64,000 nt of DNA from a virus: positions 1 through 64,000 of IMG/VR virus record IMGVR_UViG_3300046535_001092, one strand, 5' to 3'. Positions 3,712-62,266 of this stretch are shown piece after piece. The first letter of the stretch is position 1. Each line of letters begins with the position of its first letter. The notes under the pieces were generated by a model. That model was not told the origin of the DNA and made no database searches. It saw only the letters and a program-made list of their open reading frames with translations. A program made the position numbers and the translations under genes.

Positions 3712-4203
3712 TTAGTCGTCTAGTTCGTCAAGATTCTCGGAGAATCTGGGCTTAGCGGCTTCGTCAATACAATGGGCAGCAATCTCTTTTAGATTTCTTA
3801 ATCCCCATACAGAGATTAACTTGAGACGCTGCGAGACTTCCTTTACCGGCCAGTCAATGTCGATTCCCTTATCTCTACGCCTTGTAACTTTGACTAGGCC
3901 ACCGCAGAAGGAGCCTGGTTTGAGCTTGTTGATAAGGTTGATCTCTTCGCTATCGAGGAAGGCAGGATCAACTATGAGGCCGTGCTGGTGAAATACTCTC
4001 TTGAGCTTTGGTTTGGGTGAGCCATCCTTATTGTCCCAAGGAGTCTTACCCTTACGAGTAAAGATGTTAAGTTTGGTAGGACGGGCTGTTTCAATAGCCT
4101 GTGTGAGGGCGGAGGCGAGTTCGTTGACTGTGGTCTGGTTGTTTGTCGGGTTTGTCGGAGCGACTACGGGTTCGACGACGGCGATTGCTTTCTTACGTGG
4201 CAT
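3712..4203 (-). CDS. Hypothetical protein (late operon)
   Basis: 163-aa ORF from ATG 4203, acidic C-terminus. Confidence 0.55.
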   Translation of the reverse strand: MPRKKAIAVVEPVVAPTNPTNNQTTVNELASALTQAIETARPTKLNIFTRKGKTPWDNKDGSPKPKLKRVFHQHGLIVDPAFLDSEEINLINKLKPGSFCGGLVKVTRRRDKGIDIDWPVKEVSQRLKLISVWGLRNLKEIAAHCIDEAAKPRFSENLDELDD

Positions 4204-15892: not shown

Positions 15893-16426
15893 ATGGCTGG
15901 AGAAGTAGCGCGACAGATGGCCGCGACCCCCTTGCAGAAGGACGAAGCCGCCAAGCCGGAAGCCAAGACAGAGAAGAATCCGATCTTCGCCTTGCTTGGA
16001 CGCCCGAAGATCGTAGCAGGACCGGGAACCCGCTACGCGCGGACGGAAGGATGGGGCAAGGACAAGAAACCCCACCGGGACGGCGGAACCAACGAGACAA
16101 TCGCTTTCGCCGTGTTCACGCCGTTTAAGGGCTTGGAATTGCCCCTTGTCGCCACGGTCTACTGCGAACGCTTCACCGCAACTGTTACCGAAGGCGGGAA
16201 AACGGTTGTCAAGAATCGTCGCAAGCTGAACGTGTCGATTCCGTTCCTGAAGCCTGAGAAGCGCGACGGGGACGGCAACAAGGCAGCGGCGCTGGCAAAG
16301 GCGGAAATCGAAACCATGTTCCGCAACTGGGAAAAGACCACGGACCCCACCGAACGCGCCAAGGGGACCGCATCCAGCTCCGACGCCGGAGAGGATGACC
16401 CCGACGCGCCGACCGCAACCGAGTAA
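15893..16426 (+). CDS. Hypothetical early protein with acidic tail
   Basis: AGGAG RBS, own promoter and terminator, high-GC3 codons. Confidence 0.7.
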   Translation: MAGEVARQMAATPLQKDEAAKPEAKTEKNPIFALLGRPKIVAGPGTRYARTEGWGKDKKPHRDGGTNETIAFAVFTPFKGLELPLVATVYCERFTATVTEGGKTVVKNRRKLNVSIPFLKPEKRDGDGNKAAALAKAEIETMFRNWEKTTDPTERAKGTASSSDAGEDDPDAPTATE

Positions 16427-16447
16427 CACTCTCACACCTACCTCACC

Positions 16448-16484
16448 AAAGGCTCTATAAGGATTCGTCCTTATAGGGCCTTTT
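16448..16484 (+). terminator. Rho-independent terminator
   Basis: GGCTCTATAAGGA-TTCG-TCCTTATAGGGCC followed by TTTT. Confidence 0.75.
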
Positions 16485-16830
16485 CCTATTTATACCCATG
16501 TATCTATCAATTAGCCGACGGTCGTCAGGGCTGCCGAGGATGCCCCAAGACGCGAGCCGAACCGCCCAACGGGGCAAGGTGGCGGGGGGCCTGTGGAAAA
16601 CCCCACCGGGCGAACGCTGGACCCCTTCCCGGCCCGCCGTGGTGCGGTTCCCGAACCGGTTCGACGGCAGTTGACAGCCGGCCGGGAGCCGTGCGAGGAT
16701 TCGCAGGTCGGGCGGCGCTGCCGCTCGGCGGTCGGGGGCCAGGTCGAACGGCTGACCCGAACCGTAACCCAAACCAATACTTAATAGTTAATAACTACTA
16801 AGTAACTTATTGAGAAGGGAGTTAGATACA

Positions 16831-17622
16831 ATGAATTGCATCGAATGTTCTAATGACCTTGGAGATAAGGGATTTGGGATCTTCACTTGTGATCAGTGCC
16901 TCACATTGTTGAAGTTCTCAGCTATTGAAGGATTGACACTCTATTCCAAGTCTATTGGAACTAAGAGTGGATTGACACTCCAAGAGAAAGAGGAACGATG
17001 GAATAACCTTACTCCTAAAGTTGGGATCTTGTATGACGATGGTATCAATGTTGAGGCTACTGAAGCTCTTAACTTTGATCCCAAGTGCATTAGTTGTTAT
17101 AACCGTCTTGAGAGTGTCAACAATGTCTACGGTAGAATAATTGTTGGTAGTTTCAAGGTTGTTAAACAGTATCTTGAGACTGTCTCACTTAATCCATTGG
17201 TTGAAGTTCCTACCATGAGGATTTATGGCGTCCCTGTTTATAAGAAGGGATGGGCTTGTAAGTCCTGCTTTGATATGCTCTATGGTTCCACTTATCTTAA
17301 TGATAAGTTGGTTGTCATGAGAATGTTTGAGACAATAGAACTTCCCCAAGTGAAGATTAGTGATAGAGCTACTACGATCAATGGTGCCATTGGTAGAGAG
17401 AGAATCTCCCGTCCTAAAGTAAGTATCGTTAGGACTGGTCCTGATGGGACTGAAGATGAATGGCCTGATTATCGTGGTATGGCTACTGCTAAGCCTAAGG
17501 TAGAGGAACCCGTAGATATTAAGTCTTATGGGTACTTCATGAAGCCTAAGGATAGACGTAAGAATATCCTGGAGGATGACTCAATCATCGTAGATGAGAG
17601 ATCAAACTGGAGGAACAAGTGA
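16831..17622 (+). CDS. Hypothetical protein with several CxxC motifs
   Basis: CIEC, CDQC, CISC, CKSC; ATG 16831 after GGGAG. Confidence 0.6.
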   Translation: MNCIECSNDLGDKGFGIFTCDQCLTLLKFSAIEGLTLYSKSIGTKSGLTLQEKEERWNNLTPKVGILYDDGINVEATEALNFDPKCISCYNRLESVNNVYGRIIVGSFKVVKQYLETVSLNPLVEVPTMRIYGVPVYKKGWACKSCFDMLYGSTYLNDKLVVMRMFETIELPQVKISDRATTINGAIGRERISRPKVSIVRTGPDGTEDEWPDYRGMATAKPKVEEPVDIKSYGYFMKPKDRRKNILEDDSIIVDERSNWRNK

Positions 17623-20098
17623 GATTCACAACTCCTAAGTTTTATAGTCTCTACAATCTCCTATGGTACATTCCACGTCCCATAGTGAGATATGAGGCTG
17701 TACGATTTGGTACTGAGTTGTACACTCGTGTATGGTTGTTGGGTATTGTTGTTGGCACTTATGTCGATGAGATATTCGACGACTACTATTGCAAGAGCTA
17801 ACTGGAGGAACAATAGATGAAGTTCTAATCTAACTACGTCATGTGACTCTGTTGGGCAGGTAAAACAGGGACGTACTAATACCTGCTTAGTGTATACTTG
17901 AAATGAAAAGTATATAGTCCCGAACACGATAAGTATAAGAACTTAAAGACTTGTGGCTTTGGTATACGGAAGCCACACCTATTTAGTCTCTAAGTAATCC
18001 TATCACTGGTACACTAACACCAGTCGGTATATACCTAATAGACCAGTTTGATGGGATTTCTTAGACACTAACTTGGAGGTCACCTTGAGACTTGCTAAGA
18101 GTGAGACAGTTGGGACAGGTAGGAAACGTGGGATGTATGAGACTGAGTATGGCAATGTTTGCTATGTCTCTGGTCCCAATGCTAAATCAGCATATGACAT
18201 AGATGCTGATCAGAGAATCCCTATCGCCCTTGTCACCTTCAAGTACATTGGTCCTGCTCACTAGGAGGGTCGCATGCTACAAATCATCGAAGCAGACAAG
18301 ACTGTGACTGTGTATCACAGAATCACAGCCATTCACAACGATCTCACTGTCAACCTTGATCCTCAGACAAGAGTGGTTGCAGCCTTTGTTGAGGGTGATG
18401 TTGAACTGTGGAGAGTGATTGACGGTGATCGTGGAGTTGACGAGTTGAAGAACTACTACAACTTCCAGCGTGAGGAAGTTGGCATGGTCAACTACAAGAT
18501 CATGGTGGTGGTTGAATGAACATGATCATTGCTTGTGATGGCAAGCTCTACCTTGTCAATGAAGCTGCCTATATGGAGCTTGAAGGAGAGCCAATCACCA
18601 CTATCATTGGATGGGTCAAGTCCAATGGTATCCTCATGGACACCAAGTTCATGGATCTTGACGCCTTCATCCTTGAATTAGAGAGGGGCAAATGAACGTC
18701 ACAATCAACTTCGATTACGTTACCTCTGAGTGGAGAGTAACGTATATTGAGACTGACAAGACCTGTATCTCTGCCACTGGTAAGACTCTCAAAGAGGCTC
18801 TAGAAGGTCTTAAGAGTGACCAGTTGATGTGGCAGATCATTATCTGGTTTGGTATTCACCCTCTCTTTATGATGGAGCATAAGAAGTGACCGCCATCATC
18901 ATCGACAAGACCACTAACCAGGTGCTTGACATTCGATGTGAAAGGGTTGAGTCAATTGATGACTACTTTTTCACAGTCCACTTCAAGGGAGTGATACTTC
19001 CTAGATACTTCCCTAGGACGGAGTTCAGACTTGCAGGTACAACTTACTAGTCCCCCTATCTGGACTTGCAAGCTCTGTCTCAATCCTAAGACTTGCCACC
19101 TCTACTATCCTTCAGAGCGTAAGAAGAATGAAGGTCGTAGAGTGTGTATTGCTTGTTGTAGGACAAGGGACAGACAAGCAGACCAGATCTACGTCAAGAG
19201 GTTAGATGATGCTTAGTTTCTTTGAGCAGATGCAGACCTGGCCTAACGCTAGACTCAAGCATGCCTATGAGACTGGCGATAGAGCCGTCAAACGCTATGT
19301 GATCTACATACTTGAACATCGTCCAGAACACACTCCAGTGTGGGGAGCATCATTGTATGTTAGGCCAAGACCCTTTGCCATCGCCATCCCCAAAGAAACC
19401 GAAAGCACAAAGGTTTCATAATCCCACTGTTGGGATTCAGTATCCCTATGGGCAATCCCTTAGGTTTGCCTATGACGTAGAGTTCGGGCTTGTTGTGATT
19501 GTCTCGGGGAGAATCACAGTAGGAGGGATTGAGGAGATGGAGTTCATTGATATGTTTGGAATTGAAGCCTTCCAACAGATCATCTCGGGGAAGTGATGAT
19601 TAAGATTAGATGGTACGGAAAATGGTACTGGTCTGTACGTAAGATCGTACCCTTCTACGTGCGGCTCAACGAGAAGTGTTTCTTTCTTGGTCCCCTTGGG
19701 ATCAACTGGTGGTAGTAATGACCCTTACAGGTGGTTTTGCCTCATTCTCTGAAGAACGTAGATTGAGGTTCCAACTGGAGACTAGAACCCTTGAAGAATT
19801 GCGAGGGATGCTAGAGAAGTTTCCAGAGGGATCAGCAATCCGTACACTTGTCGCTGAGATCATTGAAACAAGGGAGAAGAAGTCATGATCCAACAGAAGG
19901 GTGCAGTGATTGAAGGTTATGTGAAGAATGAAGAGGATGCAAACAATCCTGAACTCTTTGCAGAAGCCTTGCAAGCTCTTATTGACAAACGTCCCAACGA
20001 CAAGATGGTGATGTTTGCTGGCATGTTCAGCACAGAGATGGCTCACAAGATCATTGGCATGCTGACACCACACGGGAAGAGGATGTAAGGGAGGTCAA

Positions 20099-20449
20099 AT
20101 GTTGAAGGTGATTGTTGATCGTGAGAGGTGGTTGAGAGGTGAGGGATCTAATGCCTCAGCTCTCTACAGAGAGGATGGCAAGATGTGCTGCATGGGATTT
20201 GCAGCCATCGCTGCGGGCTACAAGAAGTCTGACTTGCTCGGTCTCAAGTCCATTCACTCCTTGGAGATTGCTACTAGACAGAGAGTAATTGTGGCACCTG
20301 AGAATTGCTCGATTACAGAGGATGAGAATAATCTGAAGTATCATCCTCTCTACGTGCAGAACGATGCAGGCTTGACCACAGATGCAGAGAAGGAAGAGAC
20401 TCTGATCCGCATGGGCAAGAAGGTTGGCATCGAGTTCTCTTTCGTCTAA
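20099..20449 (+). CDS. Hypothetical protein, CC-motif paralog family
   Basis: WLRG..ALY...KMCCMG..ND; GGAGG RBS. Confidence 0.6.
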   Translation: MLKVIVDRERWLRGEGSNASALYREDGKMCCMGFAAIAAGYKKSDLLGLKSIHSLEIATRQRVIVAPENCSITEDENNLKYHPLYVQNDAGLTTDAEKEETLIRMGKKVGIEFSFV

Positions 20450-22412
20450 TTCACAGTCAAACAAGATTGCCACACGGTAGTTGCAACTAGTTGTGTGGTA
20501 GGCTGTGAGACTCGACTAAGCGAGTATAAATAGCTTTTAGGCTTAGTGCGCTCCATTCACCTTAGGGTGGATGGGGGTAAAGTCCGTATACTTGCTCACA
20601 CAAGTATAACAGCATAACGGACAAGGTGAGTAAGGACGTTATGCCTGTATGGATGTTGGGACTATGTTATGGGCTTGCTTGTTACGTCCCTCCTATAAAT
20701 AAAGCGGGTCTGTGCCTCTGGATCAATTGCTAGTCTGACGCTAGAGGCGAGATAGTGACTAGCCAAAGGGTGGCTGTGTTAGGAACCTTGGTAGTGGTGC
20801 AAGCCACATAAACTACCAGCTATTTAATCATATGACTAGCGATACACTCCTAGACCACCTCCTTGATAGGATCAAGTCCTATAGGGATTGCAGGCATCAG
20901 TGGCTCAGAATGGGGCATCTAGAACGTGCTCTATTCTATGAGACTAAGCTTGTAGGTGTAGTTGAGTTATTGGAGGTATATGATTGCAGATCTGTAGGAG
21001 GTTTTGGTAAGGGTCAGCCTAAAGGTCAAGACCTTATGCAACGAGTTAGGTGGCTCTTAAAGAAATATGAAGAAAGGGTTTGACCATAGGCAGCTGTGAT
21101 GGGTAATTGGTTATTGAAGGTAGTAACAAGTCTACTTTACCCGGAGTAAAACGCTACCTACCCTATGGTCAATTAGGTTTAGCCTCTCACATAATCAACA
21201 CGATAGCCATGCTGGGAAAGTCTAATAGTTGGTCCTGCAATTGCTGGTGCTCGTAATCAACATAAGGCCTTAGGCGTTGGGCTTAGGAACCTTATACAGT
21301 AATTGTTGCCCATTAATGGTTCTCGCCATGGGGCAGTTAGATGGTGTGGAATCCGTGTCCTGAGTGTGTTACTTGGGGTGTGAGAGGCTATCACAGATTG
21401 TTGGGATAGGAAATGGTATATGGGCCTGGCCGACTTCTACCGGCAGCATTGTCCATATCGTAGAGAAGCCTATCCTGACAATATAATCACGCTAAAGGGA
21501 GGGTTGCAAGTGCAGTCCAAAGAACAGAAGCGTAAGGATGGTGAGGAGCGCAATAAGCAGTGGCAAGAGATGTCTACTGCTGACAAGATTGCCTCCTTGA
21601 AGGGTCGCAGAGGAAAGTCAAAGCGTCAGATGAAGAAGTTGGAGGAGTCCAAGTGAATCTCCACCAGTTCTACTTTGACAGTTGGATACTGGCTAAGAAG
21701 ATGAGGTGGAGAATTGGGCAAGCATTGTTCAATAACCTCATGGATGTGAGGCCAGAGCTTGCAGAGAAGTTGAGGGGAACTAAGAATGATCCCTTCTTCT
21801 CTGAGTCTCCAACAGATCCCCGCTACGACGCAGCTATCAAGATCATCGAGAAGGAGTGGTTTGAAGATGCCAGTCCACGCCAAGACTCCTGAGGACTGTA
21901 AACATCTCAGGAACTTTGGTTTCCCCATCTTTGAAAGTCCTGTAACCCATATCGAGTCCATAACTCTTGGGTCACTTGCTGGTTTGTATGCTAGCCATAG
22001 TAAGAGTGATATCCTTTGTCCATACTGTAAAGTGGCATTGGATGAGGCTACTTCTCTTACTATGTTAGTGAGAGTAGTCAAGATAACTGGCGATTGTATA
22101 GGACTTGTAGAGGTAGCTCCAGAAGGTCAAAGGGCTCTTAAGTGTTCTGAATGTGAATCCAGATTCACCTTACCAAAAGGTGGAGGTTACGATGCCAGTT
22201 CCAGTTCATAAGCTCTCGTCAGTGCTTGAACAACAGCTTGCACCACGTCTATCAACCTCATTGGCTGATAGATTGATCTGTGGGGCAATCGACATCTCAC
22301 AACATGTCCTTGATCGTAAGGACCGACAGGGGTCCAACAAGCGTACCAGGTCATCCATCACAGTCACCTTGGGCCATTTGAAGGACTATGAGGAACGTGG
22401 AGGGAAGCTCTA

Positions 22413-22808
22413 ATGGACGAAGGCAAGACGTTAAGTGAGAGCATTGACTATGGGAAGCTCAACCCAGACGTTAAGGCTGCATGGATTGCTGCTCTGAGAT
22501 CTGGATCTTATGAGCAGGGAACATCTGTCATGAAACAAGTAAAGAGCCTCAGTGGTAGCCTAGATGACTGCAAGTACTGCTGCCTTGGAGTCTTGCTTGA
22601 GATCAAGGGAGTTCCATCACGATTGGCTGGGATGGTTTCTTACTGCTTCCAAGACAAGAACGGCTTCAACCTGAGAACTGCCTTGGACGATACCCTGAGA
22701 CATAGGTATGGACTTACTATCTTAGCTCAGGGTAAGCTCATTCAGATGAATGACAGTGATGCCAAGTCATTCCCTGCTATTGCAGACTGGATTGAGGAGA
22801 CGCTGTGA
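22413..22808 (+). CDS. Hypothetical protein, CC-motif paralog family
   Basis: KAAWIAALRSGSYEQ..YCCLGV..MND..F..IADWIE. Confidence 0.7.
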   Translation: MDEGKTLSESIDYGKLNPDVKAAWIAALRSGSYEQGTSVMKQVKSLSGSLDDCKYCCLGVLLEIKGVPSRLAGMVSYCFQDKNGFNLRTALDDTLRHRYGLTILAQGKLIQMNDSDAKSFPAIADWIEETL

Positions 22809-23657
22809 GTCGTATCACTGTGGGCAAGTGGATGATTGTACTAGGCATCATAGGCCTTGTAGTCTTCCACTTTGCCCTATTTATCAAAGTTGAGGGAGTA
22901 AAGTGAAGTCTAACTTCTGCAAGCACGATGAGCATGCTGGATGTGCTCCACATGGTAGGATGATCTCTCCTGAAGGTAAGCACTTCCGATGTGATTGCAC
23001 TTGCCATCCCAAACCATCTCTTGTTAAGAGGATGGTTGAGGATGAAGATGACGACGATGACTAAGGAGTGGAAAGAGGTTCCACAGGTTATGTTCTTCTC
23101 GTGGTCAGCTAAGGCACAGTGGACATATCTTGCTAAGAGAGACCTAAACTCGGCTGAACTCGCATTAGAACATGGGGACTTGAAGTCTGCTAAGTGGTAT
23201 AGGGAGCGGGCTGAGACCTACATGGATGAGGCTAAAGATGCTAAGGAAGGCTAACACCTGGCTACATCGTCTGTTCTGCATGCATGTTGACACAGCTAAG
23301 AAGACCGACACGGGTAAGACAAGAGTGTGGTTGGAGTGTATGAGTTGTGGTTGGACATCTACTGGTTGGCAAGTCAAGTGAGACTCCACACCACTAAACC
23401 AGTGCTTGTCACCCTACTTGGAGCTATAGCATTTGCTATCTTCGGGTATGGAGGGTTTCTACTCGTATGGATGACTCAGTTGGAGTTCAATCATGGCAGT
23501 AAACGGTTGGACTCTCCCACCTTGGATAGTAGAGGCCATAGAAGCTGGTACCGTGAAGGTAGTCAAAGTTAAGGATAAGAGGTTTGGGGAGTATGAGTGC
23601 CTGTATGGGTCAGTGATTGGCCCACATGGAGTGCTTGTTAACTTCCTTTGAGGTGTT

Positions 23658-24104
23658 ATGAGTGTTCCAGGTCTAGTTAAAGTTATTAGCGGTGGGCAAA
23701 CAGGGGTAGATAGGGTAGGCCTAGAGGTTGCAAAAGAGAAGGGACTTGAGACAGGTGGAACCGCTCCAAGGGGCTACAAGACTGAGAAGGGCTTCGATGT
23801 CTCCCTCAAGGACTATGGGCTTGTTGAAGATACTTCGTACGACTATAATCCACGGACTCGTGCGAATGTCAGAGATAGTGATGGAACTGTCATATTTGGT
23901 AATACTACCAGTGTTGGCAGCAAGCTTACTATTAGACTTTGCAAGGACTACAAGAGGCCCTATCTTGAGAACCCTTCTATCACTGAGCTACGTCAGTGGC
24001 TCTTGTTTAATAAGATTGCTGTCCTTAACGTGGCAGGCAATAGGTTGAGCCAGAATGCGACGGCTGCCCATTATGCTAGAGGCATCCTCATGGAGGTGTT
24101 ATGA
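23658..24104 (+). CDS. SLOG-superfamily protein (MoCo-carrier/YpsA-like)
   Basis: VISGGQTGVDR..GG.AP.G..TE.G..YGL.E..RT..NVRDSDGT..LNVAGNR. Confidence 0.85.
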   Translation: MSVPGLVKVISGGQTGVDRVGLEVAKEKGLETGGTAPRGYKTEKGFDVSLKDYGLVEDTSYDYNPRTRANVRDSDGTVIFGNTTSVGSKLTIRLCKDYKRPYLENPSITELRQWLLFNKIAVLNVAGNRLSQNATAAHYARGILMEVL

Positions 24105-24650
24105 AGGATATTGTGTTTGGGATTATCACTCTGCTTATAGTATGTGTACTAGCTGGTACCGCAGTTAGTGCTTGCTATATCACTACCTTTCTGCCCCTCA
24201 AGAATGGCTATTGTCAGACCTATATTCAGCCTACAAGCTGGAGTGGTAGTGGTTTCTGGAGTTGGCAGCCATGCCATAAGGTGAATCCCTAATGGAAAAG
24301 ATCATTGTAGCAGAGATGAAACCTGACTGGCTTGAGCCATATAGGACTATGGGACAGGATATCCCAGTCGTAGTTGCTCGACTCAATGCTAGTCCTAACT
24401 ACATGCCAAGGACTAGACTTGATTGGGGCATGATTAGTTGTGCTCTAAGAGATGGCTATGAGGTTAGGATTAGACCGAGAAAGAAGTGAGACTCTAAGTG
24501 AGCCATCTAATCCCTTGTATGAGACATTCCGGTATCTGGCGACCTCCATACTGGTTTAGTTTCTCCTAGGTGCTTTAGATGGCTCTCTTAGGTTCTCACT
24601 GAGACTCTAGGAATACCATTGAACAGCCTCGAAAAAGCGAACACTCATAA

Positions 24651-24722
24651 GTCTAATTAGCTCAGTATGGTAGAGCATCAGCTAAAACCTGAGGGTCGGT
24701 GGTTCGATCCCACCATTAGACA
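24651..24722 (+). tRNA. Atypical tRNA or tRNA-like element, apparent anticodon AAA
   Basis: Acceptor GTCTAAT/ATTAGAC, D arm GCTC-AGTATGGTA-GAGC, T arm GGTGG-TTCGATC-CCACC; anticodon stem only 4 bp (TCAG/CTGA); loop CTAAAAC; no encoded CCA. Confidence 0.7.
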
Positions 24723-24915
24723 GCGACGTGGGTGATTAGGTTCAATGGTATTCTTATGGTCTTACATCTCCATCGCTACACAAAGTTGCAAGACAATGCC
24801 TTCGTCCGAACATGCAAGAAGTGTGGTAAGAAGCAGGGGTTGTCTACCATAATTGCATGCCCGATGTTGGTTGTACGTTGTTGGAAGACGCTAAGGAATC
24901 TACCTAGACAGTCGT

Positions 24916-25260
24916 ATGATAAGGGAGGTCAAAGTGCCACAGACATATACAAAGATGGATCCCACTGAGAAGGCTAAGTGGGTTGCAGCTCTGAGGTCTG
25001 GAGACTACAAGCAGTGTACACAGGTTCTCTACAGTCCTAAGTCTAACTCCTATTGCTGTCTTGGAGTTAAGCTTGAAGTAGTAAATAGGCTTACTCGTGC
25101 TGATGGAATTTATATGCCAACTTTCAAGGAGCTTGCTACTTTAGATTGGAAGCGGGTTGTAGGCATTGATTATGGTGCAATCGGCAGGCTTATCAACATG
25201 AATGACAAAGAGGACCAGAACTTCAATCAGATCGCTGATTGGATTGAGGCTAACCTCTAA
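24916..25260 (+). CDS. Hypothetical protein, CC-motif paralog family
   Basis: KAKWVAALRSGDYKQ..YCCLGV..MND..F.QIADWIE. Confidence 0.7.
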   Translation: MIREVKVPQTYTKMDPTEKAKWVAALRSGDYKQCTQVLYSPKSNSYCCLGVKLEVVNRLTRADGIYMPTFKELATLDWKRVVGIDYGAIGRLINMNDKEDQNFNQIADWIEANL

Positions 25261-25605
25261 CACTTGCGGAGGTCAAAGATGGAGTTAGGTGCAGATAAGG
25301 CCTTAGAGATTACTCGATAGGAGAAGGCATGCCACAGAACCTTATGGTCCATCGAGGCTTGTTCACAGGCTATCACTATGCTGTGCATGCTTCTTACCAC
25401 AATCGTAGACCTACCTTGGAGTTCTTTGAGAGGGAGCCTGAGGCTATCAAGGATGCCAAGCTCAAACTCTACAATTGTAGTAGAGTAACAGTATACTCGC
25501 TTGAGGACTGTACCTTTGTAGGTAAGGCAATACTTGAGTCCAGGTCAGCTAAGAAGAAGCTGGTCAAGTTGAAGGAATATCAGATAAAGGACGGAGAGTA
25601 AGAAG

Positions 25606-25965
25606 ATGGCATCAGCTAGAGGGATGAGTTGTTGTGGGCTTGCGGAGATTGCTGGTATCTCCTATGGTACTCCTGAGGAGGCTATGCGGACTATTGTCCT
25701 ATATAGCTCTCACAACGAATATAGGATCCAACCAGTAATGATCTTCACTGGTGCCTCAACTACTAAGACTCCGCCAGCCTACTCTGAGAAGTTCAAGGCC
25801 CTCATTGAGAAGGAGAAGCTTGGTGATGTGACTGTGATTGAGGCCTCTGCAAAGAATCCTAACAGTCATAACTATATCACCACGTATGTGTGGCGTACCA
25901 ATAAGAAGAACTTGAAGGCTTGGTACACAGGGGCTAAGAAGAAGGCTCCAAGGGTCGTTAACTAG
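25606..25965 (+). CDS. Hypothetical protein, CG-x-x-E paralog family
   Basis: SCCGLAEI..IFTG..LG.V..NPNSHN.I..YVW..WY. Confidence 0.65.
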   Translation: MASARGMSCCGLAEIAGISYGTPEEAMRTIVLYSSHNEYRIQPVMIFTGASTTKTPPAYSEKFKALIEKEKLGDVTVIEASAKNPNSHNYITTYVWRTNKKNLKAWYTGAKKKAPRVVN

Positions 25966-27434
25966 AGATTGTGGTCCCTCAAATCATCTGGGGGCGTAAG
26001 CTGGCATGGGAACTCAACTAGCCCAAACTACACAAGGGCACATATGTCTACCGAGTAGTAACTAGGTGTCTATTAATTTAGTGTAACATCCTAGTGAATA
26101 GTAAGGTAGATGGCGTCTATCATTTGATAGTAGAGATTGCATACAGGCCACATAACTTCGTCATCATCATGCGCTACCTCATCTATGTCGTTGTCGGTGT
26201 TCCAGTGTTCATCTATTACACCCTCCTGAGTGCTTATGATGATTGGAGACTGTCTTGCAGATAAAGGCTGCTACACTCTACAAGAAGGGTCAGGCTCTCA
26301 TAGACAAGTTCAACCCCTGCAATATCACCACAGATGATAAGGGCTATATTCATTGTAGTCTAGGTAGAAAGCCTAGCCGACCAGGAACCACTTACTGTTG
26401 TGATGATTGTAAGTATGTCAGTGATGAGGGTTGTACTGTTAAGTCTCTGGGCTGTAAGTTGGGGATGTGCTTCCAAGGTCCGGTGAGAGACTTCTGGAAG
26501 CAGGAGACTCCATTCCCTCCAGAGTTTATCGTTGAGATGAACAAGCTCCAAGACAAGGCACATAAGGCTCGCTACAACCTAACCTGTCGAACCATCACTA
26601 AGGAGTTAAATGGGTAATCGTATTAGATTGAAGCCCCTCTCCAAGCGTCTATCGGTGGGGGAGAAGCGTCGTAGACTGGCTAGGATTGCAAGGAGAAAGC
26701 TGAAAAATGGCTAGAATCATCGTCGGTGGATCAACTAACCCCTTTGTTAGTGTGGGGCAAGCACAAGAAGGAGAGTAACATGCCAGCCTATGCAATCAAA
26801 TCATCACGCTATATCAGCGACAGGAAGACATTGTACTTCAAGACCAGTGTTCCTGCTGGAGACATTTGCGAAGCCATTGCAAACTTCAAGGAGGTACATA
26901 GACATGAAAGGGTAACTGGAATCGACTGTAACGATAACGAGAGGATTGTAAGACAGGATCGTGCCTGGTATATACCAAACACGGCTGCGGCTCGTTAATT
27001 GTAGGCCAGACTCAAGCCATATGTGTTTGAGTCTGCTCTAGAGATAACGAACAACCAACCTAAGGAGTGAGCATGGCTGGATTGAGTGTGCGTAAGGACT
27101 ATAAGGATGCTGTTGAGAGGCACTTCAAGACCCTAGATGGGGCTGGAGACATTCTCAAGAAGGTGGCGGCGGGGGCAGAGTTTGAAGAGCTTGAGACTGG
27201 CGCAGAGGATGCTCTTAGAGGTGGAGAGAGACGAGAGATTCACTATGTCAAGCTGAAGAATGGCGAAGAGAAGATCCGGATTGAGGTCTACTACCTTTCT
27301 TAAGGGTTTAGGCGGTCTAGCTGATTGTCCAGTGAATTCTGTCGCTAGTATGCTGCTACGCTGACAATGCCTAGTAAGCTCTGCGGGCAGAGACCGCCTA
27401 AAGTATTTATTAACATTTGAGTGGAGATGGTCGC

Positions 27435-28229
27435 ATGAGATTACCACCGTTCAAGGATGAGATTGCAGACAAGAACACAGGGTCAGGCTACTACGGTACC
27501 AATGAGGAGCCTGCTGTGTTGAAGGAGTTGATTAGGGGAAGGATCTACAATAAGGCAGGGTCGATTGCAAGTGGTGGAGAGATGCCCATCCTTATACTCC
27601 TGCCTGTGTGTAAGGAAGTTGTGGCTATTGACCACAGCTATCGCTCCCTGGCCGCATGTTATCTCAAGGTGCTTCTATTGGATGCACTTGGTCCTGAGAA
27701 GCTCTATGAAGTGCTGAGGGTTAATAACTCTCCCCTCTTTATAGAGACTTGTAAGCAGTTTAACGACATGATTCCTGCTGGAATTATGAAGCATGCTGGG
27801 GCTGTAGCAGGCTATCCTGGGAACTATACAGTAGCTACTCTTGCTGGCTCTATCTATGGGGAGATGCGTAGGGAGTGGCTACTCCTGCCCAAGACCGTGC
27901 TTGCGGCTGCATACAGACGATTAGAGAGGCTCACGTTTGTGCATGGGGATCTGGTTAATGACTTGCCTAAGTATGGTAAGTTTAACCTGTTGTATATGTC
28001 TAATGCTCATGAGCATGCTAATCGTGATGCTAAGTATCCCAAGATTGACGACTTTGACAAGATTGTCAAGCCTAATGGATCTGTCCTGCATGTCACTACG
28101 AACTATACGACGATAGTTCCTAAGAAGTATCCTGGCTGGACGGTTGCAAAGACTCTGACAGGGATTCGTACTGCTTGGAACTACCATCTGTTTAAGAAGG
28201 ATCCTGCTGCCACACAAGTGACAGTGTAA
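27435..28229 (+). CDS. SAM-dependent transferase-like protein (DUF3419/BtaA-like)
   Basis: YYGTNE, SIASGGE, VVAIDHS, LTFVHGDL, LLYMSN. Confidence 0.55.
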   Translation: MRLPPFKDEIADKNTGSGYYGTNEEPAVLKELIRGRIYNKAGSIASGGEMPILILLPVCKEVVAIDHSYRSLAACYLKVLLLDALGPEKLYEVLRVNNSPLFIETCKQFNDMIPAGIMKHAGAVAGYPGNYTVATLAGSIYGEMRREWLLLPKTVLAAAYRRLERLTFVHGDLVNDLPKYGKFNLLYMSNAHEHANRDAKYPKIDDFDKIVKPNGSVLHVTTNYTTIVPKKYPGWTVAKTLTGIRTAWNYHLFKKDPAATQVTV

Positions 28230-28470
28230 GGGGTTAGGAACCTCAGGTAATGTCTGCTTATTCATAGTGCGAGTCATTGCGACTCCATATACTATGGGCG
28301 GTAGGTAACGCACAAGTGGTGTAGATTACAGCACAGGGGTTCCTAATATTTGAGGGTGTAACATGTGTATATTGATCATAGGTGGGTTGGTTGTGGCCTT
28401 CGCTATACTTGTAGCTGGAGGGCTGCTGTTCGCCTTTGAGATTGCAAAGAAGTTGGGACTTTAACAAGGA

Positions 28471-28755
28471 GTGAGTATGTTGACATTCTTAGGTAAGATT
28501 TTCACATTCCTTGGTTGGAGTAGGGACGATTGGAAGTGGATCTGGACCCAGTTAGTCGCTGCTATGGGACTTGTAACCTTAGGAGCAGTTGACGTACCTA
28601 TGTGGGTGATGTTCCTATTTGGTGTCACTATGTCTACCACGGCTATTCATTGGGTACAGTTTGTGTGCGGAGTTATCTTTTGGGTGTCTGGCAGGATGGC
28701 AACTAGTCCTCTTTATGGAAGAAATAACTTCCCCCCATCTAGTGCTGGTATGTAA
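28471..28755 (+). CDS. Small membrane protein
   Basis: Two to three hydrophobic segments; AAGGAG upstream. Confidence 0.55.
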   Translation: MSMLTFLGKIFTFLGWSRDDWKWIWTQLVAAMGLVTLGAVDVPMWVMFLFGVTMSTTAIHWVQFVCGVIFWVSGRMATSPLYGRNNFPPSSAGM

Positions 28756-29339
28756 TATGACCTTCAATGAAATCAAGGCTAAGTGGAATGAGGAGCAGTT
28801 CCCCCCACAGGAGCCATATGTTGCTGGTAAGAAGATTGAGGAGCCGTCTGCTGATTTCTGGCTCCTCCTTGTCTATATTGCATTTGTGATATTTGTAATG
28901 GGGTTACTATGATCTTAACCTGCTGCGGCAAGAAGCATAATGGTGCTAAGGCAATCATCAAGCACCTTGGTACGACAGAGTTTACTGGAGATCGTAGGAT
29001 GATATTCCAGTGTGACAAGCATAGAAGATTTACTGCTAAGTGCTACAACTGTAAACTCTGCCGCTATATTCATAAGATTGACAAGAAGCTGTGGAAGAAG
29101 AAGCTAACCCTAGATCAGTACACCGGTATTTATTCAGGTGGAATGCCTGGAACTTGGTTTGAAGGTTGTGAATAATGAGTAAGTCTAAGTCACATCCTTG
29201 TAAGCATCCTGAGAAGGCCCTACGACATGAGGGGGCCTTCGTAGTGTGTAAGAAGTGCTCTAAGATTGTGTATGATGCAATTGAAGAGTATAAGAAGAAG
29301 CGAGAGGCTGAGGGGATGTCTACCTCAGGATTGTAAGTT

Positions 29340-29606
29340 ATGCCTTATAAAGTTCGCATTAGGCGTAACAGTGACAATCTAATCAGAACCTATGATGACG
29401 ATTTAGATTGGCATGATAGCTCTATGTTCTGGTGGACTGAGGGTAACGCAGGGTGTGACTGTAATAGGGCCTTGTTCTTTGCTAGAGCGGTAGATGAAGA
29501 TGAGCCAGATTGGGATAATATCCCTTGTGGCGATAAACTTTACACTGTGTTAGATATTACTCTAGAAGATGGTCGAGTGATTGAGGTTGATGCTCCGGTA
29601 GCTTAA
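29340..29606 (+). CDS. Hypothetical protein
   Basis: FWWTEGNAGCDCNR..F motif. Confidence 0.65.
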   Translation: MPYKVRIRRNSDNLIRTYDDDLDWHDSSMFWWTEGNAGCDCNRALFFARAVDEDEPDWDNIPCGDKLYTVLDITLEDGRVIEVDAPVA

Positions 29607-29668
29607 CTGGAGAAAGCCTCGGACTTCTAATCCGATGACTGGGGGTTCGAATCCCCCCTGGAGCACCA
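29592..29668 (+). tRNA. tRNA-Arg(UCU)
   Basis: GCTCCGG/CTGGAGC acceptor + ACCA; anticodon arm TCGGA-CTTCTAA-TCCGA; T arm GGGGG-TTCGAAT-CCCCC. Confidence 0.92.
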
Positions 29669-31067
29669 TTTATGCTTAACGGCAAGCAGCTAAAACGACT
29701 AGTAAGTAAGATCCCAGATGATGCTATTGTCCAAGTAGCTGGACCTGACTCTGGCGGCTATGATTGGACATATTGTGATAAGGCTCAGATCACAAAAAGG
29801 AAGAATATCTACTTCATTAGTGGGGTCTTTGACGAAAGAGTTTTTAAGGACTAGTTATGTCTACCTTCTATGACAGGCTTATGACTAAGAAGAATCTGCC
29901 TAGAGTCCCAGTCCCTAAGCCCTCTGTTGTACACAAGGTGAAGGTTAAGACTAAGCATCGTAAGCGCAAGCACAAGGGAGAGGTCGAGGACTTGTATGAC
30001 TACTGAACTAGATAAGCTACTAACCAGGCTGCTCCTTCTTGCAGTTGTAGGGATTGCTAAGCTTCTTCTTAGTAGATTCCCAGACGAGACTACTGGAACC
30101 AAGATTCTTGGCACTATTGCCCGCCTTAAGGTGCTTGGGCAGAACGAGATGACTGGTAAGGACTACAAAGAATACTTTGAAGACATTGATGAGGAGTAGA
30201 ATATGAAGATTAAAGATAAGTGTGAGGCTGCACCCGCTAGATGGATAAAGGATCTCCCAACTGGGGCTGTCTTTACTACTAGAGATGGAAGAACCCTAAT
30301 GAAGGTTAGACAGTATTCTGCAACCACTACTACTGTTCATTACCTTGTAGACCTTGCTAGAGGTGTGTTCTGTAACTGGTCCGAGAATCTTCAAGGCTCG
30401 GAGACTGACCGACCAGAGCTTGAGAGCTACTACCCCAATGTTGAGCTTATCTTGAATAAGAAAGAGTAGCACTAGCTAGATAAATATGTGGGGTTTGAGG
30501 TATCATGCGCAAAGGCCGTCTCTCACTACTGAGAGATTTGGTAAAGGTCCTTCGATACTCCTCTTTACAGGGTGAAAAGACCCTGGCCCTGCTCACCCCT
30601 TCACCTTGAGGCTTTATGCAACAAGACGTTAGAATCATCAGGTTCACTTGTGATAGATGTGGTAACCAAGAGGAGTTTAAAAGAGTTGGTTATACCTATC
30701 CAGCTAGGCCTGTAGGATGGTCAACTAGGATAACCTATGGCCATGGACTTACTAACCACTCACAAGACGAAGATATCTGCTCTGGTTGTACAGCAGCTCT
30801 AGGGGGGATATTATGATTGGAGACTTCAGCGATGGTCCACAAGGCTCGGAGACTGAGGGGGGTCCTTTTGACCATACATGCCCGTGGCCTTGGCAAGACA
30901 AAGAGTGTCTTGCGTGTGGGGTCAGAGATTGTCCAAGCAGGGAAGCTCTTCACTATAGTAAGTATGGCTGCCCTACCTGTTCGCTTGCTAAGGTTGAAGA
31001 ATCCCCTACACTGCCTTTCGGAGAGCCAGAGGAAACACAGAGTAACCTTGAAAAGGAGTAGATTATA

Positions 31068-31442
31068 ATGGGTGAGTATATTAATTCACAGACGGCTAAG
31101 TTTGATAGATCGCATATCTCTTGTGGTGTGACTGAGGTTCATCACCTTCCTGCAAATACAGCTAAGACGGTGTTTGCTATCTCTAACTACTTCTACCATA
31201 AGGCCAATCCACGTCCTGGAGCCTTCATCATCTTCTCAGATGTGGTTGATCAGGGTGGAGAGAAGCGCGGTGAGCAGCTTGCAGCAGCTCTAAAGAAGCT
31301 TGATTGTGGTGAGATCATTGAGTCCGTTAAGGCTGTCAACCCACGTACAGGCAATGTCATTAGAGTATGGATCTTTACCCCAAATCATGAGACCTTCCGT
31401 AAGTGGTACCAGGAAGAGCTTGCAAACCGGATAGACGACTAA
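31068..31442 (+). CDS. Hypothetical protein, CG-x-x-E paralog family
   Basis: ISCGVTEV..IIFSD..GEI..NPRTGNVIRVWIF..WY. Confidence 0.65.
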   Translation: MGEYINSQTAKFDRSHISCGVTEVHHLPANTAKTVFAISNYFYHKANPRPGAFIIFSDVVDQGGEKRGEQLAAALKKLDCGEIIESVKAVNPRTGNVIRVWIFTPNHETFRKWYQEELANRIDD

Positions 31443-33867
31443 GGAGGGAGTATGAGGCCGCTACACTTCGTAGATGATGGTAAGGAGTATGCGATTGAGT
31501 TCAAGAGGAAGTTGTCTGATGTCACGTTACAGAGAATCGCTGGTGGTAACTCTGTCATGGGTCCTTCTACTTACCCTTATACTACCGTGGACATTGTGGA
31601 AGTGGATAAGTCTACGAGTCCATACACTCGTAGGGTACACCGTACGTTCACAGTAGGTTGTCACCATAAGGATAGATTCAATCGGGAGAAGGGTCGCATT
31701 AACGCTCTGCGCCAGGTCTCACGCACCGATAGCTTGAGTTATGAGTTTAAGGCTAAGCTGTGGCAGACCTACATGGAGCGGGCTAATGTCACCGACAGTC
31801 TTGAAGGTTAAGTGTACACATCCATTGCATTGGACAGGAAAGGTTAAACATGGCGGCAAAGTCCTTCTCTACTGCCACAAGTGCAACTCTTACGTGTGAC
31901 AAGTGTGGGGGTGCTTGTACACGTCGAATTCTAACACAGACCCCACACATTGATGTAGTTGGCAAGTCTAGTGGAGTAAATGCACTACAGTGGATCTGCG
32001 GAGTCTGCCTTCAATATTTGATAGGTTATCGCTGATGAAAGCTAAACTCACCATCACCCTCTCTGCCGAGTCTAAGGATGAGGTCATGAGTACCTTCCCT
32101 TCCGAGTACAAGTTTATAAGGGAATCGTTTGAGAAGGTGCTCAAGGATCATGGATTCATGGGAGTTGTCAAACCTGAACACACAGTTGTAAGGTGGCTAC
32201 TGGATTCAAGTTATGGGAATGAAGGATTACACGGGGAAGGCTAGGACTTGCGTGGGGGGTCTTAGTTGTTGTGGGACTAATTATGGCCCACAGAAGACTA
32301 AGAGAAGGACCCGCAGACATCAACGTAGAGTTGATAAGATGAAACTGAAGAAGGAGATTGAGGAATGAAGGCTATCTTCACTGAGAGGTTAAAAGAACAG
32401 TTCGGCAATATTGGTGTGGGTGCTACCTTTATTGTAGGTCCAGATTCCAAAGTAGTCTGTGTTAAGACTGCCAGAGCATTTGACGAGTCATATAATGCCT
32501 TTGACTTAGTTAACAATGTACGACTTGAGATGAGTGCTGGAGATCCTGTGTTCTTGGTTGATTGTGAGCTTAGGGTTAAGAGGGAGGTTTAGAGGAGGCT
32601 GCGGTGAATAGCTTTAAGAAGTGGAAGTTTCGCAAGAGGCTAAAGAAGGTGGTCAAATGGTATGGAAAAAGGTCGGGACTAACGAAGGAACAGAGGTCGA
32701 CAGTCCTAGAGAAGATGCTCTTAAGCCTAGGGTTATAGAATACACAGATCATGACCATGAATGGGCCTTTTTTCGAGCTACACATCCCCACTACTACTGT
32801 CAGGCTCTAAAAGACTCCCCCAATTGGCCCTATGTCACCCAAGAGGAACTGAAGGAGTCCGTCCGATGAAGATCTACACTAAGATTCTTGCTGGAGATGA
32901 CAGAGATGATGCTTGTAGAGAGGCTATTAAACAGCATTGTACTCACATGTTCTTTAATGGTAGGCTGTATAGAGTATCCTACTCTATAACTGAGATGCCT
33001 GGCTATGACAGTCTAAGAACCTGGTTAGAGAATAGACCTAATCCAAACGGTCAGTCCTACATTGAGGTTGTGTGATGAGCTACATACGCATCCCATCTAA
33101 CCCTGAACGTCTCCATATATTCCACGACAACGATGGAAGGGTGAAGATTAATCGGGGTCCATTCACTAAGTTGTTGAGTGTGAAGGCTAGTGACTTCAAT
33201 GCCCTAATCAACGCATATAACGAGTTTGACATGATCCCTGAAGGGGGATTTGAGGCTGGCAGGCTCACCCTTAAAGAGGAGGGATCTTGTAAGGATGCTG
33301 ACTACGGGAAGGTTATCCTTGAGATTAAGGGAGAGCCTGACTTAGAGATGTGGCTTGTGACCTGGCACTACATTGCTAGTCGTAGAGGTAGATTTACTAA
33401 GTTGAAGTCTCGGTTTACAGTGGAGAAGAAGAATGGTTAGAAGGACTTGCTATTCTATCGGATACACCTTAACTATTGGAGCTAATAGGTATGACAAACA
33501 TACCTTAGTAGCTGCTAATAGTCTTTCTGAGGTAGAAAGCTTATTCAGGGAGAGTGTTATTGGTCCTTGGACTTCCTTTAAGATAACCTCAGTCCAAAGT
33601 CAAGGTTCCATAGTTGTTGGAGGGGAAGATGCCTAAAGATGTCAAGAGCGTCTATAAGGTCTGCTACTACGCTAGTGATGGGTTTGGTCGTAGTGAGACT
33701 ACCTCTAAGAGCGTGTTGGTTATAGCAGAGAGCTTTGCAGAGGCAGAGGACTTGTTCTGGGATAATAAGCCTACTAAGGCTGAGACTGTCTGGTGGGTTG
33801 GGTGTGAGGGTAGAGTGCATGCAGGTAAGGTTTAGGGAGATTCGTGTAAGTAAGATTGGAGGTTAGG

Positions 33868-55230: not shown

Positions 55231-55429
55231 CAAGAAATGATAGATAGTGCTAATCAGTCTATGGGCGATAGAGTTTTTGATATCGTGGAGAAGATTCATC
55301 GACTTAGGAATGATGTTACTATGGCTAAGTTAAATGCAGCCTTTACTATGGAGTTAGAAGAAAGGCTACAGATAGCAGCTGACATTCTAACTAAGGTTGA
55401 GAAGGTCCTTATGGAAATTGAAGGCAATA

Positions 55430-62250: not shown

Positions 62251-62266
62251 AGGTAGGAGGATGTCG

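Follow-up and report, generated by a model that had tools for sequence, protein, structure and literature searches.

Early intergenic gaps of an uncultured phage contain RNA folds of several unrelated kinds, part of them closed by long duplexes

The question of what self-cleaving ribozymes do for phage operons dates back to 2011 and is still open. Hammerhead, twister and pistol ribozymes occur in clusters that flank small phage and prophage genes (PMC3088659; Harris et al. 2015, PMC4604425), and for those flanking prophage genes a part in processing long phage transcripts has been proposed (Perreault et al. 2011, PMC3088659). The locus described here brings this question to a single early operon, in which one pistol ribozyme occupies intercistronic positions alongside long duplexes and closed folds. 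The source is an uncultured phage with a 97-kb genome, of which a stretch of 64,000 nucleotides was analysed (the window). Its early region covers about 17.8-30.7 kb on the + strand and appears to be read as one polycistronic transcript. Roughly 19% of this region is non-coding, compared with about 8% of the 31.5-63 kb block, and the intergenic structures lie on the transcribed (+) strand. An initial annotation had proposed ten domains in these gaps, each closed by a long terminal duplex, as one shared architecture from which small structured RNAs would be excised. This proposal was partly confirmed: the early gaps do hold RNA folds with long closing duplexes, and these are of several unrelated kinds. 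The region offers a defined candidate set: one ribozyme, four orphan folds (E3, E4, E8 and E9) and a tRNA-like RNA enclosed by a putative processing stem. The features are as follows.

17983-18071, + strand: E1, 89-nt Y-shaped fold, closing helix of 4+6+9 bp with two 1x1 mismatches, z -4.9
20510-20582, + strand: predicted pistol self-cleaving ribozyme, Rfam RF02679
21080-21172, + strand: E3, 93-nt domain with a perfect 11-bp closing duplex, moderate as a closed domain, z -1.7
21180-21390, + strand: E4, 211-nt rod-like branched fold with a perfect closing duplex of 12-13 bp, z -3.7
24485-24600, + strand: E5, 116-nt long hairpin, basal helix of 7+6+11 bp with two 1x1 mismatches, z -6.8
24602-24762, + strand: E6, enclosing a tRNA-like gene at 24651-24722
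26992-27050, + strand: simple hairpin with 24-nt arms, absent from the initial annotation
27307-27402, + strand: E8, 96-nt three-way junction with a perfect 12-bp closing duplex, z -3.0
28234-28346, + strand: E9, 113-nt multi-branch fold closed by 11 pairs (one G-U), z -4.2
29592-29668, + strand: ordinary tRNA-Arg(UCU) between ORFs, without a closing duplex

Perfect inverted repeats of at least 11 bp with 40-260 nt separation occur six times in the 2.38 kb of early non-coding gaps. Among 1000 dinucleotide shuffles of the same gaps the mean was 0.051 and none reached six, an enrichment of about 100-fold. The density of 2.5 per kb in the early gaps compares with 0.06 per kb in the 31.5-63 kb block and with 0.08-0.15 per kb in 1.2 Mb of other phage loci, and 7 of the 10 such repeats in the whole 97-kb genome fall within the 9 kb between 21080 and 30073. 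The sequences and coordinates of the previously listed arms were correct.

21080-21090 with 21162-21172: perfect arms, 11 bp
21180-21191 with 21379-21390: perfect arms, 12 bp
21996-22006 with 22054-22064: perfect arms, 11 bp, the sixth perfect repeat and a new addition to the list
24500-24510 with 24575-24585: perfect arms, 11 bp, within 26-nt arms (88%)
24611-24624 with 24740-24753: perfect arms, 14 bp, within 23-nt arms (87%)
27307-27318 with 27391-27402: perfect arms, 12 bp
28234 with 28346 (outer pair): 11 pairs, one G-U

Inverted repeats of this sort could in principle be DNA-level features or leftovers without RNA function, such as recombination scars, gene-cassette boundaries, protein-binding sites or decayed mobile elements. 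Several arms are indeed perfect over 11-14 bp, E1 folds equally well on the minus strand (-34.2 against -30.1 for the + strand), and TTAGGAACCT recurs exactly three times in the early gaps, once as an E9 arm. However, the helices extend through G-U pairs and favour + strand RNA, and the interiors fold too; inspection of the flanks revealed neither target-site duplications nor direct repeats, and the elements form no repeated family, having neither paralogues nor common k-mers. We consider a purely DNA-level origin very unlikely. Most of the folds are more stable as + strand RNA, their G-U pairs becoming C-A mismatches on the other strand; in E4, where 14 of 75 pairs are G-U, the energies are -78.2 and -54.4 kcal/mol for the + and - strands, with -40.9 against -30.9 for E9 and -26.6 against -20.5 for the 26992-27050 hairpin. 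A MITE or other mobile element with terminal inverted repeats was rejected, as neither related copies in the window nor target-site duplications were found. A CTCTAAG/CTTAG motif common to the arms of E1, E5 and E6 was likewise discarded: with 63 genomic occurrences, about 2.7 times the random estimate, CTCTARG is not specific to these arms.

Robust closing duplexes were obtained at 17983-18071, 21180-21390, 24485-24600, 24602-24762 and 27307-27402 (in-context closing-pair probability about 1.0 for each) and at 28234-28346 (0.76). For 21080-21172 the outcome was moderate, as the 11-bp arms are perfect but the closing pair reached a probability of only 0.38. The minimum-free-energy z-scores of the ten annotated windows were, in order, -4.9, -5.2, -1.7, -3.7, -6.8, -4.4, -1.6, -3.0, -4.2 and -1.65, values that are inflated because the windows were picked by their arms. 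Scores for the ten whole gaps, which are free of this selection bias, were -4.4, -3.6, -1.7, -1.25, -3.8, +0.85, -3.0, -2.8, -2.25 and -0.5, compared with a mean of -0.64 (sd 1.37) for coding windows. Whole-gap folding was better than that of coding windows in 6 of the 10 gaps, and two of the ten lacked unusual structure. The expectation that the domains fold better than shuffles was thus borne out for most examples and failed for two. At ~25969-26152 (window z -1.6, whole-gap z +0.85) folding was no better than in shuffles, and the supposed 3' arm falls inside a probable ORF, 26094-26264 (coding score 17); at ~30488-30605 (window z -1.65, whole-gap z -0.5) only local hairpins were found.

The closing duplexes are not classical terminators, as had been proposed: a scan gave terminator-like sites only at 16448 and 17952, and the hairpin at the latter (17952-17977) precedes E1. 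The stated lack of U-tails was largely confirmed in the scan, E8 being the exception. This fold begins 3 nt past a stop codon and is followed by GUAUUUAUU, but with a 'loop' of 72 nt it does not constitute an intrinsic terminator. The interiors are unrelated, again as annotated. Single-sequence covariance models of E8 and E9 found only themselves in the window and in 0.97 Mb of phage loci, no common k-mer was detected, and searches for an Rfam family, paralogue or homologue of the unassigned folds were negative.

The example at 20519-20596 had been misread, since its proposed closing pair has a probability of 0.00 and the gap contains a predicted pistol ribozyme. The RF02679 match scores 57.4 bits against a gathering score of 34.5 (E 2e-8) and covers the full model, 1-68. 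When set against the pistol family features described earlier (PMC4604425), P1 consists of 20510-14/20521-25 (ACUCG/CGAGU), and a 6-bp pseudoknot pairs ACUAAG (20515-20) with CUUAGU (20542-47), fully compensatory to the consensus UCUGGG/CCCAGA. P3 has 11 bp (20551-61/20566-76), while P2 is formed by four Watson-Crick pairs between CUUU (20534-37) and AAAG (20579-82). This register lies 1 nt off that of the cmscan alignment, where two of the pairs are marked as non-canonical. On the right, P2 and P3 are joined by the 2-nt junction G20577-U20578, the predicted cleavage site. The annotated 20519/20596 pairing competes with P1. Pairing of the P1 3' strand with 20587-20596 (10 bp) was considered as a conserved switch and dismissed for lack of enrichment: the best run averaged 5.85 in 103 other pistols and 5.7 in controls.

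Since it holds this predicted self-cleaving ribozyme, at least one early gap is very probably a genuine site of RNA processing. As in ribozyme-punctuated operons, a canonical pistol lies in an intergenic gap among small phage genes; unlike in those operons, there is one ribozyme only, and the remaining gaps hold no known ribozymes. Apart from the pistol and tRNA, Rfam returned no family at E<=10 within 16000-33000, including hammerhead, twister, hatchet and HDV-like ribozymes, riboswitches and large ncRNAs, and hammerhead CUGANGA cores were absent from the early gaps. The notion of one shared architecture thus gave way, as the examples include a ribozyme that needs no RNase III, a tRNA-like gene and two windows at chance level.

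In phage T7, RNase III cuts the early RNA at hairpins between the cistrons, and these hairpins afterwards stabilise the 3' ends on their upstream side. The folds described here resemble T7 R0.3-R1.3 (by description only) in being stable hairpins without U-tails between early cistrons, and E1, E5 and E6 share with them irregular helices, about two turns long and interrupted by small internal mismatches. Unlike the simple T7 hairpins of about 50-60 nt, the present folds span 90-210 nt and have branched interiors, and four have closings of only 11-13 bp. RNase III favours roughly two helical turns, for which 11-13 bp is short. The basal helices of E1 (19 bp), E5 (24 bp) and E6 (23 bp), all with 1x1 mismatches, have the quasi-continuous double-stranded length of about 20 bp or more typical of RNase III targets, whereas E3, E4, E8 and E9 reach only 11-13 bp. 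An RNase III architecture common to all examples is not supported.

Our preferred reading, which we put slightly below an even chance, is that the gap folds act in cis as punctuation that cuts and stabilises one polycistronic early RNA. The pistol would cleave itself at G20577/U20578, so that the upstream message would end in a 2',3'-cyclic phosphate and the downstream RNA would begin with a 5'-OH. Host RNase III would cut the 19-24 bp basal helices of E1, E5 and E6; at T7 RNase III sites, the upstream message keeps a protective 3' hairpin after such cleavage. A Pfam search of 30 larger proteins found no phage-encoded RNase III, RNA ligase or RtcB. The shorter folds (E3, E4, E8, E9 and the 26992 hairpin) may mainly protect ends or insulate, compacting untranslated spacer. 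They begin -7 to +4 nt from the upstream stop, and the first element of five gaps starts within this same distance of a stop codon. Since such interiors would need no specific sequence, punctuation would account for their being unrelated, and the lack of shared sequence, paralogues or an Rfam family is expected if pairing alone matters. The pistol and the duplexes use the same kind of intercistronic position, and ribozymes and nuclease-targeted stems may therefore stand in for one another in cutting and stabilising a long message. Several observations count against cis-acting punctuation: the branched interiors of 60-190 nt far exceed what processing or protection needs, E8 has a 6-nt loop-loop complementarity that hints at a specific three-dimensional fold, E1 has no + strand preference, four closings have 11-13 bp, and structure is unremarkable in two of the ten gaps.

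The positions of individual folds are as follows. E1 lies in the leader of the first small-gene cluster, 3 nt 5' of a GGAGG Shine-Dalgarno sequence (18075-18079). The closing duplex of E3 overlaps the TGA stop of the orphan ORF 20832-21083, which has no homologue besides itself, so that 20450-21419 may be non-coding throughout. E5 starts on the stop codon of ORF 24292-24489. The 26992-27050 hairpin bridges the gap between ORFs 26726-26998 and 27067-27303 (whole-gap z -3.0). E9 begins 4 nt past a stop codon and ends 16 nt 5' of ORF 28363-28464, a probable 33-aa membrane peptide.

E6 differs from the other folds in its content. ARAGORN called a tRNA at 24651-24722, and Rfam RF00005 scored it at 54 bits against 29. 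It has a 7-bp acceptor stem, D and T arms and an above-threshold cloverleaf score, but in place of the canonical 5-bp anticodon stem it has 4 bp (UCAG/CUGA) with the loop CUAAAAC and stem deletions in the alignment, and because of this non-canonical stem we call it tRNA-like. Two helices carry the gene: an inner one, CACUCAU/GUGGGUG, and outside it a leader-trailer duplex of 23 bp. This flank duplex is the strongest among 140 phage tRNAs (-39.6 kcal/mol against a median of -19.0), and tRNA-Arg(UCU) of the same region provides an internal contrast, with -18.4 kcal/mol at rank 75 of 140. A pattern search of IMG/VR for the odd anticodon arm of E6 gave 0 matches.

In bacterial rRNA operons the flanks of 16S and 23S form long duplexes that are cut by RNase III. 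The leader-trailer duplex of E6 similarly encloses a stable RNA gene within a longer transcript, and RNase III cleavage there would free the tRNA-like precursor from the mRNA as the 16S/23S flanking stems do. Unlike the rRNA stems, E6 encloses a 72-nt tRNA-like molecule, and no comparable duplex occurs among the 140 phage tRNAs. Theta (HDV-like) ribozymes adjoin phage tRNAs (Kienbeck et al. 2024, PMC10879173), and E6 would resemble them as a phage route to tRNA release from a longer transcript without the usual host enzymes alone. It differs from them in that its flanks form a duplex, and Rfam gave no HDV-like match adjoining either tRNA.

The tRNA-like gene also bears on the earlier suggestion of an RNA arsenal, in which stable small RNAs, the tRNA mimic included, would be excised at the closing duplexes and then, as decoys or sponges, target host defence or RNA-binding proteins in trans. 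With its abnormal 4-bp anticodon stem and AAA anticodon, the tRNA-like element may have no part in translation, the interiors are large, branched and each stable, and an early-region site suits host take-over functions. Nevertheless, no element resembles a known decoy or protein-binding class in Rfam, homologues or paralogues of the elements were not found, and two examples are otherwise explained (ribozyme and tRNA) while two are not above chance. The arsenal thus found no support, and we assign it a low probability.

The stop-codon geometry raises another possibility, that the closed folds mainly affect translation or transcription by coupling neighbouring cistrons (bringing the stop beside the next ribosome-binding site) or by hiding the spacer from Rho. 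The 5' arms start at or near stop codons, and 13-32 nt separate the ends of the 3' arms from the next start; moreover, the gaps are long for a phage (about 19% against 8% non-coding), and long untranslated gaps would need protection from Rho. However, this reasoning is purely geometric, no arm sequesters a Shine-Dalgarno sequence, and E3, E5 and E6 are followed by more non-coding sequence rather than by a start codon. We regard such a role as unlikely.

Should the message turn out not to be processed, the orphan folds would be candidate members of new RNA classes. At least one of E3, E4, E8 and E9 could be an undescribed functional RNA with the closing duplex as its P1, either a self-cleaving ribozyme or an element that senses a ligand or protein and regulates the downstream gene in cis; E8, E9 and the 211-nt E4 are the best candidates. 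New ribozyme classes have been found near known ones in phage DNA (PMC4604425), a precedent for this proposal, and all four folds are sited just 5' of ribosome-binding sites. In E8, the hairpin loops AUUGUC (27324-29) and GACAAU (27363-68) are perfectly complementary, a run of six that was matched by 0 of 300 shuffles; yet the complementarity can equally form an alternative nested helix, only 2.3 kcal/mol worse. Four different new classes in one phage would be improbable, and the folds did not recur in the window or in 1.2 Mb of pistol-bearing phage loci, nor did they give hammerhead cores or Rfam matches at E<=10. All in all, a new class among them is distinctly unlikely in our estimate.

Two unrelated pistol-bearing phage contigs, L029 and L021, show ribozymes mixed with distinct stem-closed domains at equivalent positions, which speaks for the punctuation reading. 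In L029 an 11-bp long-range duplex is P3 of a pistol with a large insert, which favours the new-class proposal. Were that proposal true, stem-closed modules would represent an unrecognised, recurrent packaging of such RNAs. Near pistols in 103 phage loci, long-range duplexes were only weakly enriched (0.12 versus 0.08 per kb), a further point against cis-acting punctuation.

Searches for relatives usable in covariation analysis came back negative. Megablast and blastn against GenBank phages gave no match save the tRNA-Arg, tblastn with the DNA polymerase and terminase gave at most 31% identity to cultured phages, JGI metagenome contigs yielded only unrelated cpYpsA carriers, and GTDB genomes included no close relative. 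Searching IMG/VR with four query proteins revealed one relative, L001, whose DNA polymerase is 68% identical; this 34-kb fragment does not include the early region, and no closed folds were seen in the replication-region gaps common to both. Proteins identical to those of this phage were present on 9-10 contigs.

Six perfect inverted repeats (at least 11 bp, arms 40-260 nt apart) were counted in ten non-coding gaps of the early region (about 17.8-30.7 kb), which were set from the coding profile and amount to 2.38 kb in total. The mean in 1000 dinucleotide-preserving shuffles was 0.051, and six repeats were reached by 0/1000 of them. Repeat density was 2.5 per kb in these gaps. Elsewhere in this genome, the 31.5-63 kb block had 0.06 per kb, and 1.2 Mb of contigs from other phages had 0.08-0.15 per kb. 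As many as 7/10 such repeats of the whole genome fall within 21,080-30,073. The initial annotation had proposed here a series of duplex-closed RNA domains, and its inverted repeats were placed correctly in the window. The folds and RNA genes discussed below are as follows.

RNA features of the early region
17983-18071, plus strand, stem-closed fold E1, no Rfam family
20510-20582, plus strand, predicted pistol self-cleaving ribozyme, Rfam 57.4 bits vs gathering score 34.5
21080-21172, plus strand, stem-closed fold E3, no Rfam family
21180-21390, plus strand, stem-closed fold E4 (211 nt), no Rfam family
24485-24600, plus strand, stem-closed fold E5, no Rfam family
24602-24762, plus strand, stem-closed fold E6, holding the tRNA-like gene
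24651-24722, plus strand, tRNA-like gene, 54 bits, enclosed by the initially proposed domain 24608-24756
26992-27050, hairpin absent from the initial annotation, no Rfam family
27307-27402, plus strand, stem-closed fold E8, no Rfam family
28234-28346, plus strand, stem-closed fold E9, no Rfam family

Structural statements are based on thermodynamic prediction together with shuffling controls, and for closing-pair probabilities every gap was folded together with its flanks. The pairs 17983/18071, 21180/21390, 24485/24600, 24602/24762 and 27307/27402 closed with a probability near 1.0; 28234/28346 reached 0.76, 21080/21172 reached 0.38, and 20519/20596 had zero probability. The z-scores of the initially chosen windows ranged from -1.6 to -6.8 but are biased, because those windows were picked by their complementary ends. 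Over whole gaps, z was -4.4, -3.6, -1.7, -1.25, -3.8, +0.85, -3.0, -2.8, -2.25 and -0.5, compared with a mean of -0.64 (sd 1.37) for coding windows. By this comparison, structure in the gaps 25966-26093 and 30470-30615 is nothing out of the ordinary, and the domains proposed at about 25969-26152 and 30488-30605 find no support; the 3' arm of the former also lies inside a probable ORF.

For most elements the plus-strand RNA gives the better fold, with G-U pairs in use: E4 has 14/75 G-U pairs and reaches -78.2 kcal/mol on the plus strand vs -54.4 kcal/mol on the minus strand, and E9 reaches -40.9 vs -30.9. E1 is the exception, with no better fold as plus-strand RNA. That the arms are DNA-level or vestigial repeats is thus hard to credit, even though E1 would suit such a reading. 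The 10-mer TTAGGAACCT occurs in exactly three copies (20779, 21283 and 28234), all in early non-coding gaps. Its copy at 28234 is the 5' arm of E9, with an inverted copy at 28337; when one mismatch is allowed, there are 15 matches vs 5.2 expected.

The helices differ in length. Basal helices of 19, 24 and 23 bp, broken by 1x1 mismatches only, close E1, E5 and E6, while the closing helices of E3, E4, E8 and E9 have 11-13 bp. In five gaps the first structure starts close to the stop codon of the preceding gene (-7 to +4 nt), and the last arm stops short of the following start codon by 13-32 nt, leaving the Shine-Dalgarno sequence on its 3' side. This placement might be read as serving translational coupling or anti-Rho insulation, which we regard as unlikely. 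As initially stated, the elements do not resemble terminators: 0 closings matched in a consensus terminator scan. The motif (C/G)UAUUUA lies directly 3' of four stable helices in the genome (16486, 17979, 20820 and 27403, the last being E8), and may mark weak termination or pausing peculiar to the phage or its host.

Rfam identified three known RNAs in the early region. The pistol at 20510-20582 was read against the defining features of its family (PMC4604425). P1 is ACUCG/CGAGU, and its loop ACUAAG forms a 6-bp pseudoknot with CUUAGU (20542-47), fully compensatory with respect to the consensus UCUGGG/CCCAGA. P2 has four Watson-Crick pairs (CUUU/AAAG), shifted by one nucleotide from the cmscan register, P3 has 11 pairs, and the strictly 2-nt junction G20577-U20578 is the predicted cleavage site. 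The closing duplex initially drawn at 20519-20596 (AGCGAGUAUA with UAUACUUGCU), which has zero probability in context, would destroy P1 of this ribozyme. An anti-P1 segment was also considered as a regular feature downstream of pistols, and it did not recur in 103 other phage pistols.

The tRNA-like gene in E6 has normal acceptor, D and T arms, an anticodon stem of 4 bp and the loop CUAAAAC. Its leader and trailer form two helices, an inner one of 7 bp and an outer one of 23 bp. This flank duplex (-39.6 kcal/mol; RNAduplex, 60-nt flanks) is the strongest of 140 phage tRNAs, whose median is -19.0, and the ordinary tRNA-Arg of the phage (29592-29668) ranks 75/140. The exact 10-nt direct repeat TGAGACTCTA (24487-24496 and 24600-24609) opens the 5' arms of the neighbouring E5 and E6. 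Because both arms begin alike, the 5' arm of E5 could serve as an alternative partner for the outer 3' arm of E6, in a pairing that would enclose both folds.

None of E1, E3, E4, E5, E8, E9 and the 26992-27050 hairpin had an Rfam match at E<=10, and no hammerhead core was found in the unassigned folds. The initial view that the interiors are unrelated was borne out: the unassigned folds share no k-mers, and covariance models of E8 and E9 searched against the window and about 1 Mb of phage loci gave no paralogues or homologues. In the three-way junction E8, six nucleotides of one hairpin loop are complementary to the other hairpin loop; 0/300 shuffles had a run this long. A nested alternative built on the same pairing is less stable by only 2.3 kcal/mol, so a tertiary contact is no more than a candidate. 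Of the readings considered, a new functional RNA among E4, E8 and E9 would be the most interesting; the E8 loops would suit it and the covariance searches lend it no relatives, and we consider it quite unlikely. The decoy arsenal of the initial annotation draws on the size of the interiors and the odd tRNA-like RNA; nothing else was found in its favour, and it seems very improbable.

The simplest account fitting every part, which we put forward tentatively and at somewhat less than even confidence, is that these structures punctuate a polycistronic early RNA in cis. We infer that the region is transcribed as a single unit and cleaved by RNase III, and that the shorter closed folds have a stabilising role. 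In T7, RNase III hairpins direct transcript cutting and then protect the upstream 3' end. For ribozymes the same job has been proposed: prophage hammerheads flanking genes would divide long phage transcripts into gene-length mRNAs (PMC3088659). On its anatomy, the predicted pistol would show that processing occurs in at least one gap. The 19-24 bp duplexes of E1, E5 and E6 are RNase III-sized, and a cut in E6 would free a tRNA-like precursor, just as bacterial rRNAs are freed from flanking stems. With their position against stop codons, and with nothing shared detected among their interiors, the shorter closed folds might provide end protection or insulate long untranslated spacers.

A search of IMG/VR with a degenerate pistol pattern gave 119 stretches, none a relative of this phage, and two of them, L021 and L029, carry similar stem-closed arrays.

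Stem-closed features of the two stretches
L021, 3029-3139 and 3411-3520, two domains of about 110 nt, each with a perfect 13-bp closing duplex
L029, 4225-4520, minus strand, pistol with a structured insert of about 220 nt inside its P3 stem (CAAUCGAAAGA / UCUUUCGAUUG)
L029, 5468-6020, minus strand, two adjacent cassettes of about 275 nt, each with an 11-12 bp perfect closing duplex

The L021 domains occupy successive intergenic gaps just upstream of a pistol (3860-3926, 74.7 bits). In L029, 2.2 kb next to a twister-like match and a pistol match hold five distinct long-range duplexes. One is P3 of the insert-bearing pistol, of which Rfam scores the 5' half only (31 bits, below the gathering score), and two others enclose small ORFs. 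Each cassette contains a small ORF, one preceded by a GGAGA ribosome-binding site; therefore, long-range stems there also enclose whole small genes. Over all pistol loci, duplex enrichment near pistols was only 0.12 vs 0.08 per kb. Stem-closed arrays are thus a habit of some phages and not a general pistol companion.

The phage genome is 97,163 bp long, its ends overlap by about 22 bp, and the window is its first 64 kb. Structural genes lie on the minus strand, and a long plus-strand block (about 16.8-63 kb) begins with numerous small early ORFs and continues with replication genes; hexamer coding scores, from a model trained on long ORFs of this phage, back the plus-strand reading across the early region. 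No close relative was present among 50,697 GenBank phage records, and collection scans gave no relative with the early region, its one related phage fragment (L001) lacking that part. Proteins identical to those of the phage occur in 9-10 assemblies. Among 30 of the phage's larger proteins, Pfam revealed neither a phage RNA polymerase nor an RNase III, RNA ligase or RtcB. Near the DNA polymerase lie a Dam-type methyltransferase, a nucleoside 2-deoxyribosyltransferase-like protein and a dATP/dGTP diphosphohydrolase N-terminal domain (55397-55918, 61521-61937 and 62222-62755), together a possible module for DNA base modification or for the nucleotide pool. CTCTARG occurs in 63 copies genome-wide on both strands, about 2.7 times the estimate for random sequence, an excess that fits the CTAG/TAG-rich composition of the phage. 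Coding signal is almost nil over 20450-21419 (about 970 nt). The sole sizeable ORF there (20832-21083, 83 aa, coding score 1.4) lacks a Shine-Dalgarno sequence and had no homologue but itself among 5.8 billion proteins. The 33-aa ORF at 28363-28464 scores poorly in the hexamer model; preceded by a GAGGG ribosome-binding site, it codes for one hydrophobic helix (MCILIIGGLVVAFAILVAGGLLFAFEIAKKLGL) and is probably a real small membrane peptide.
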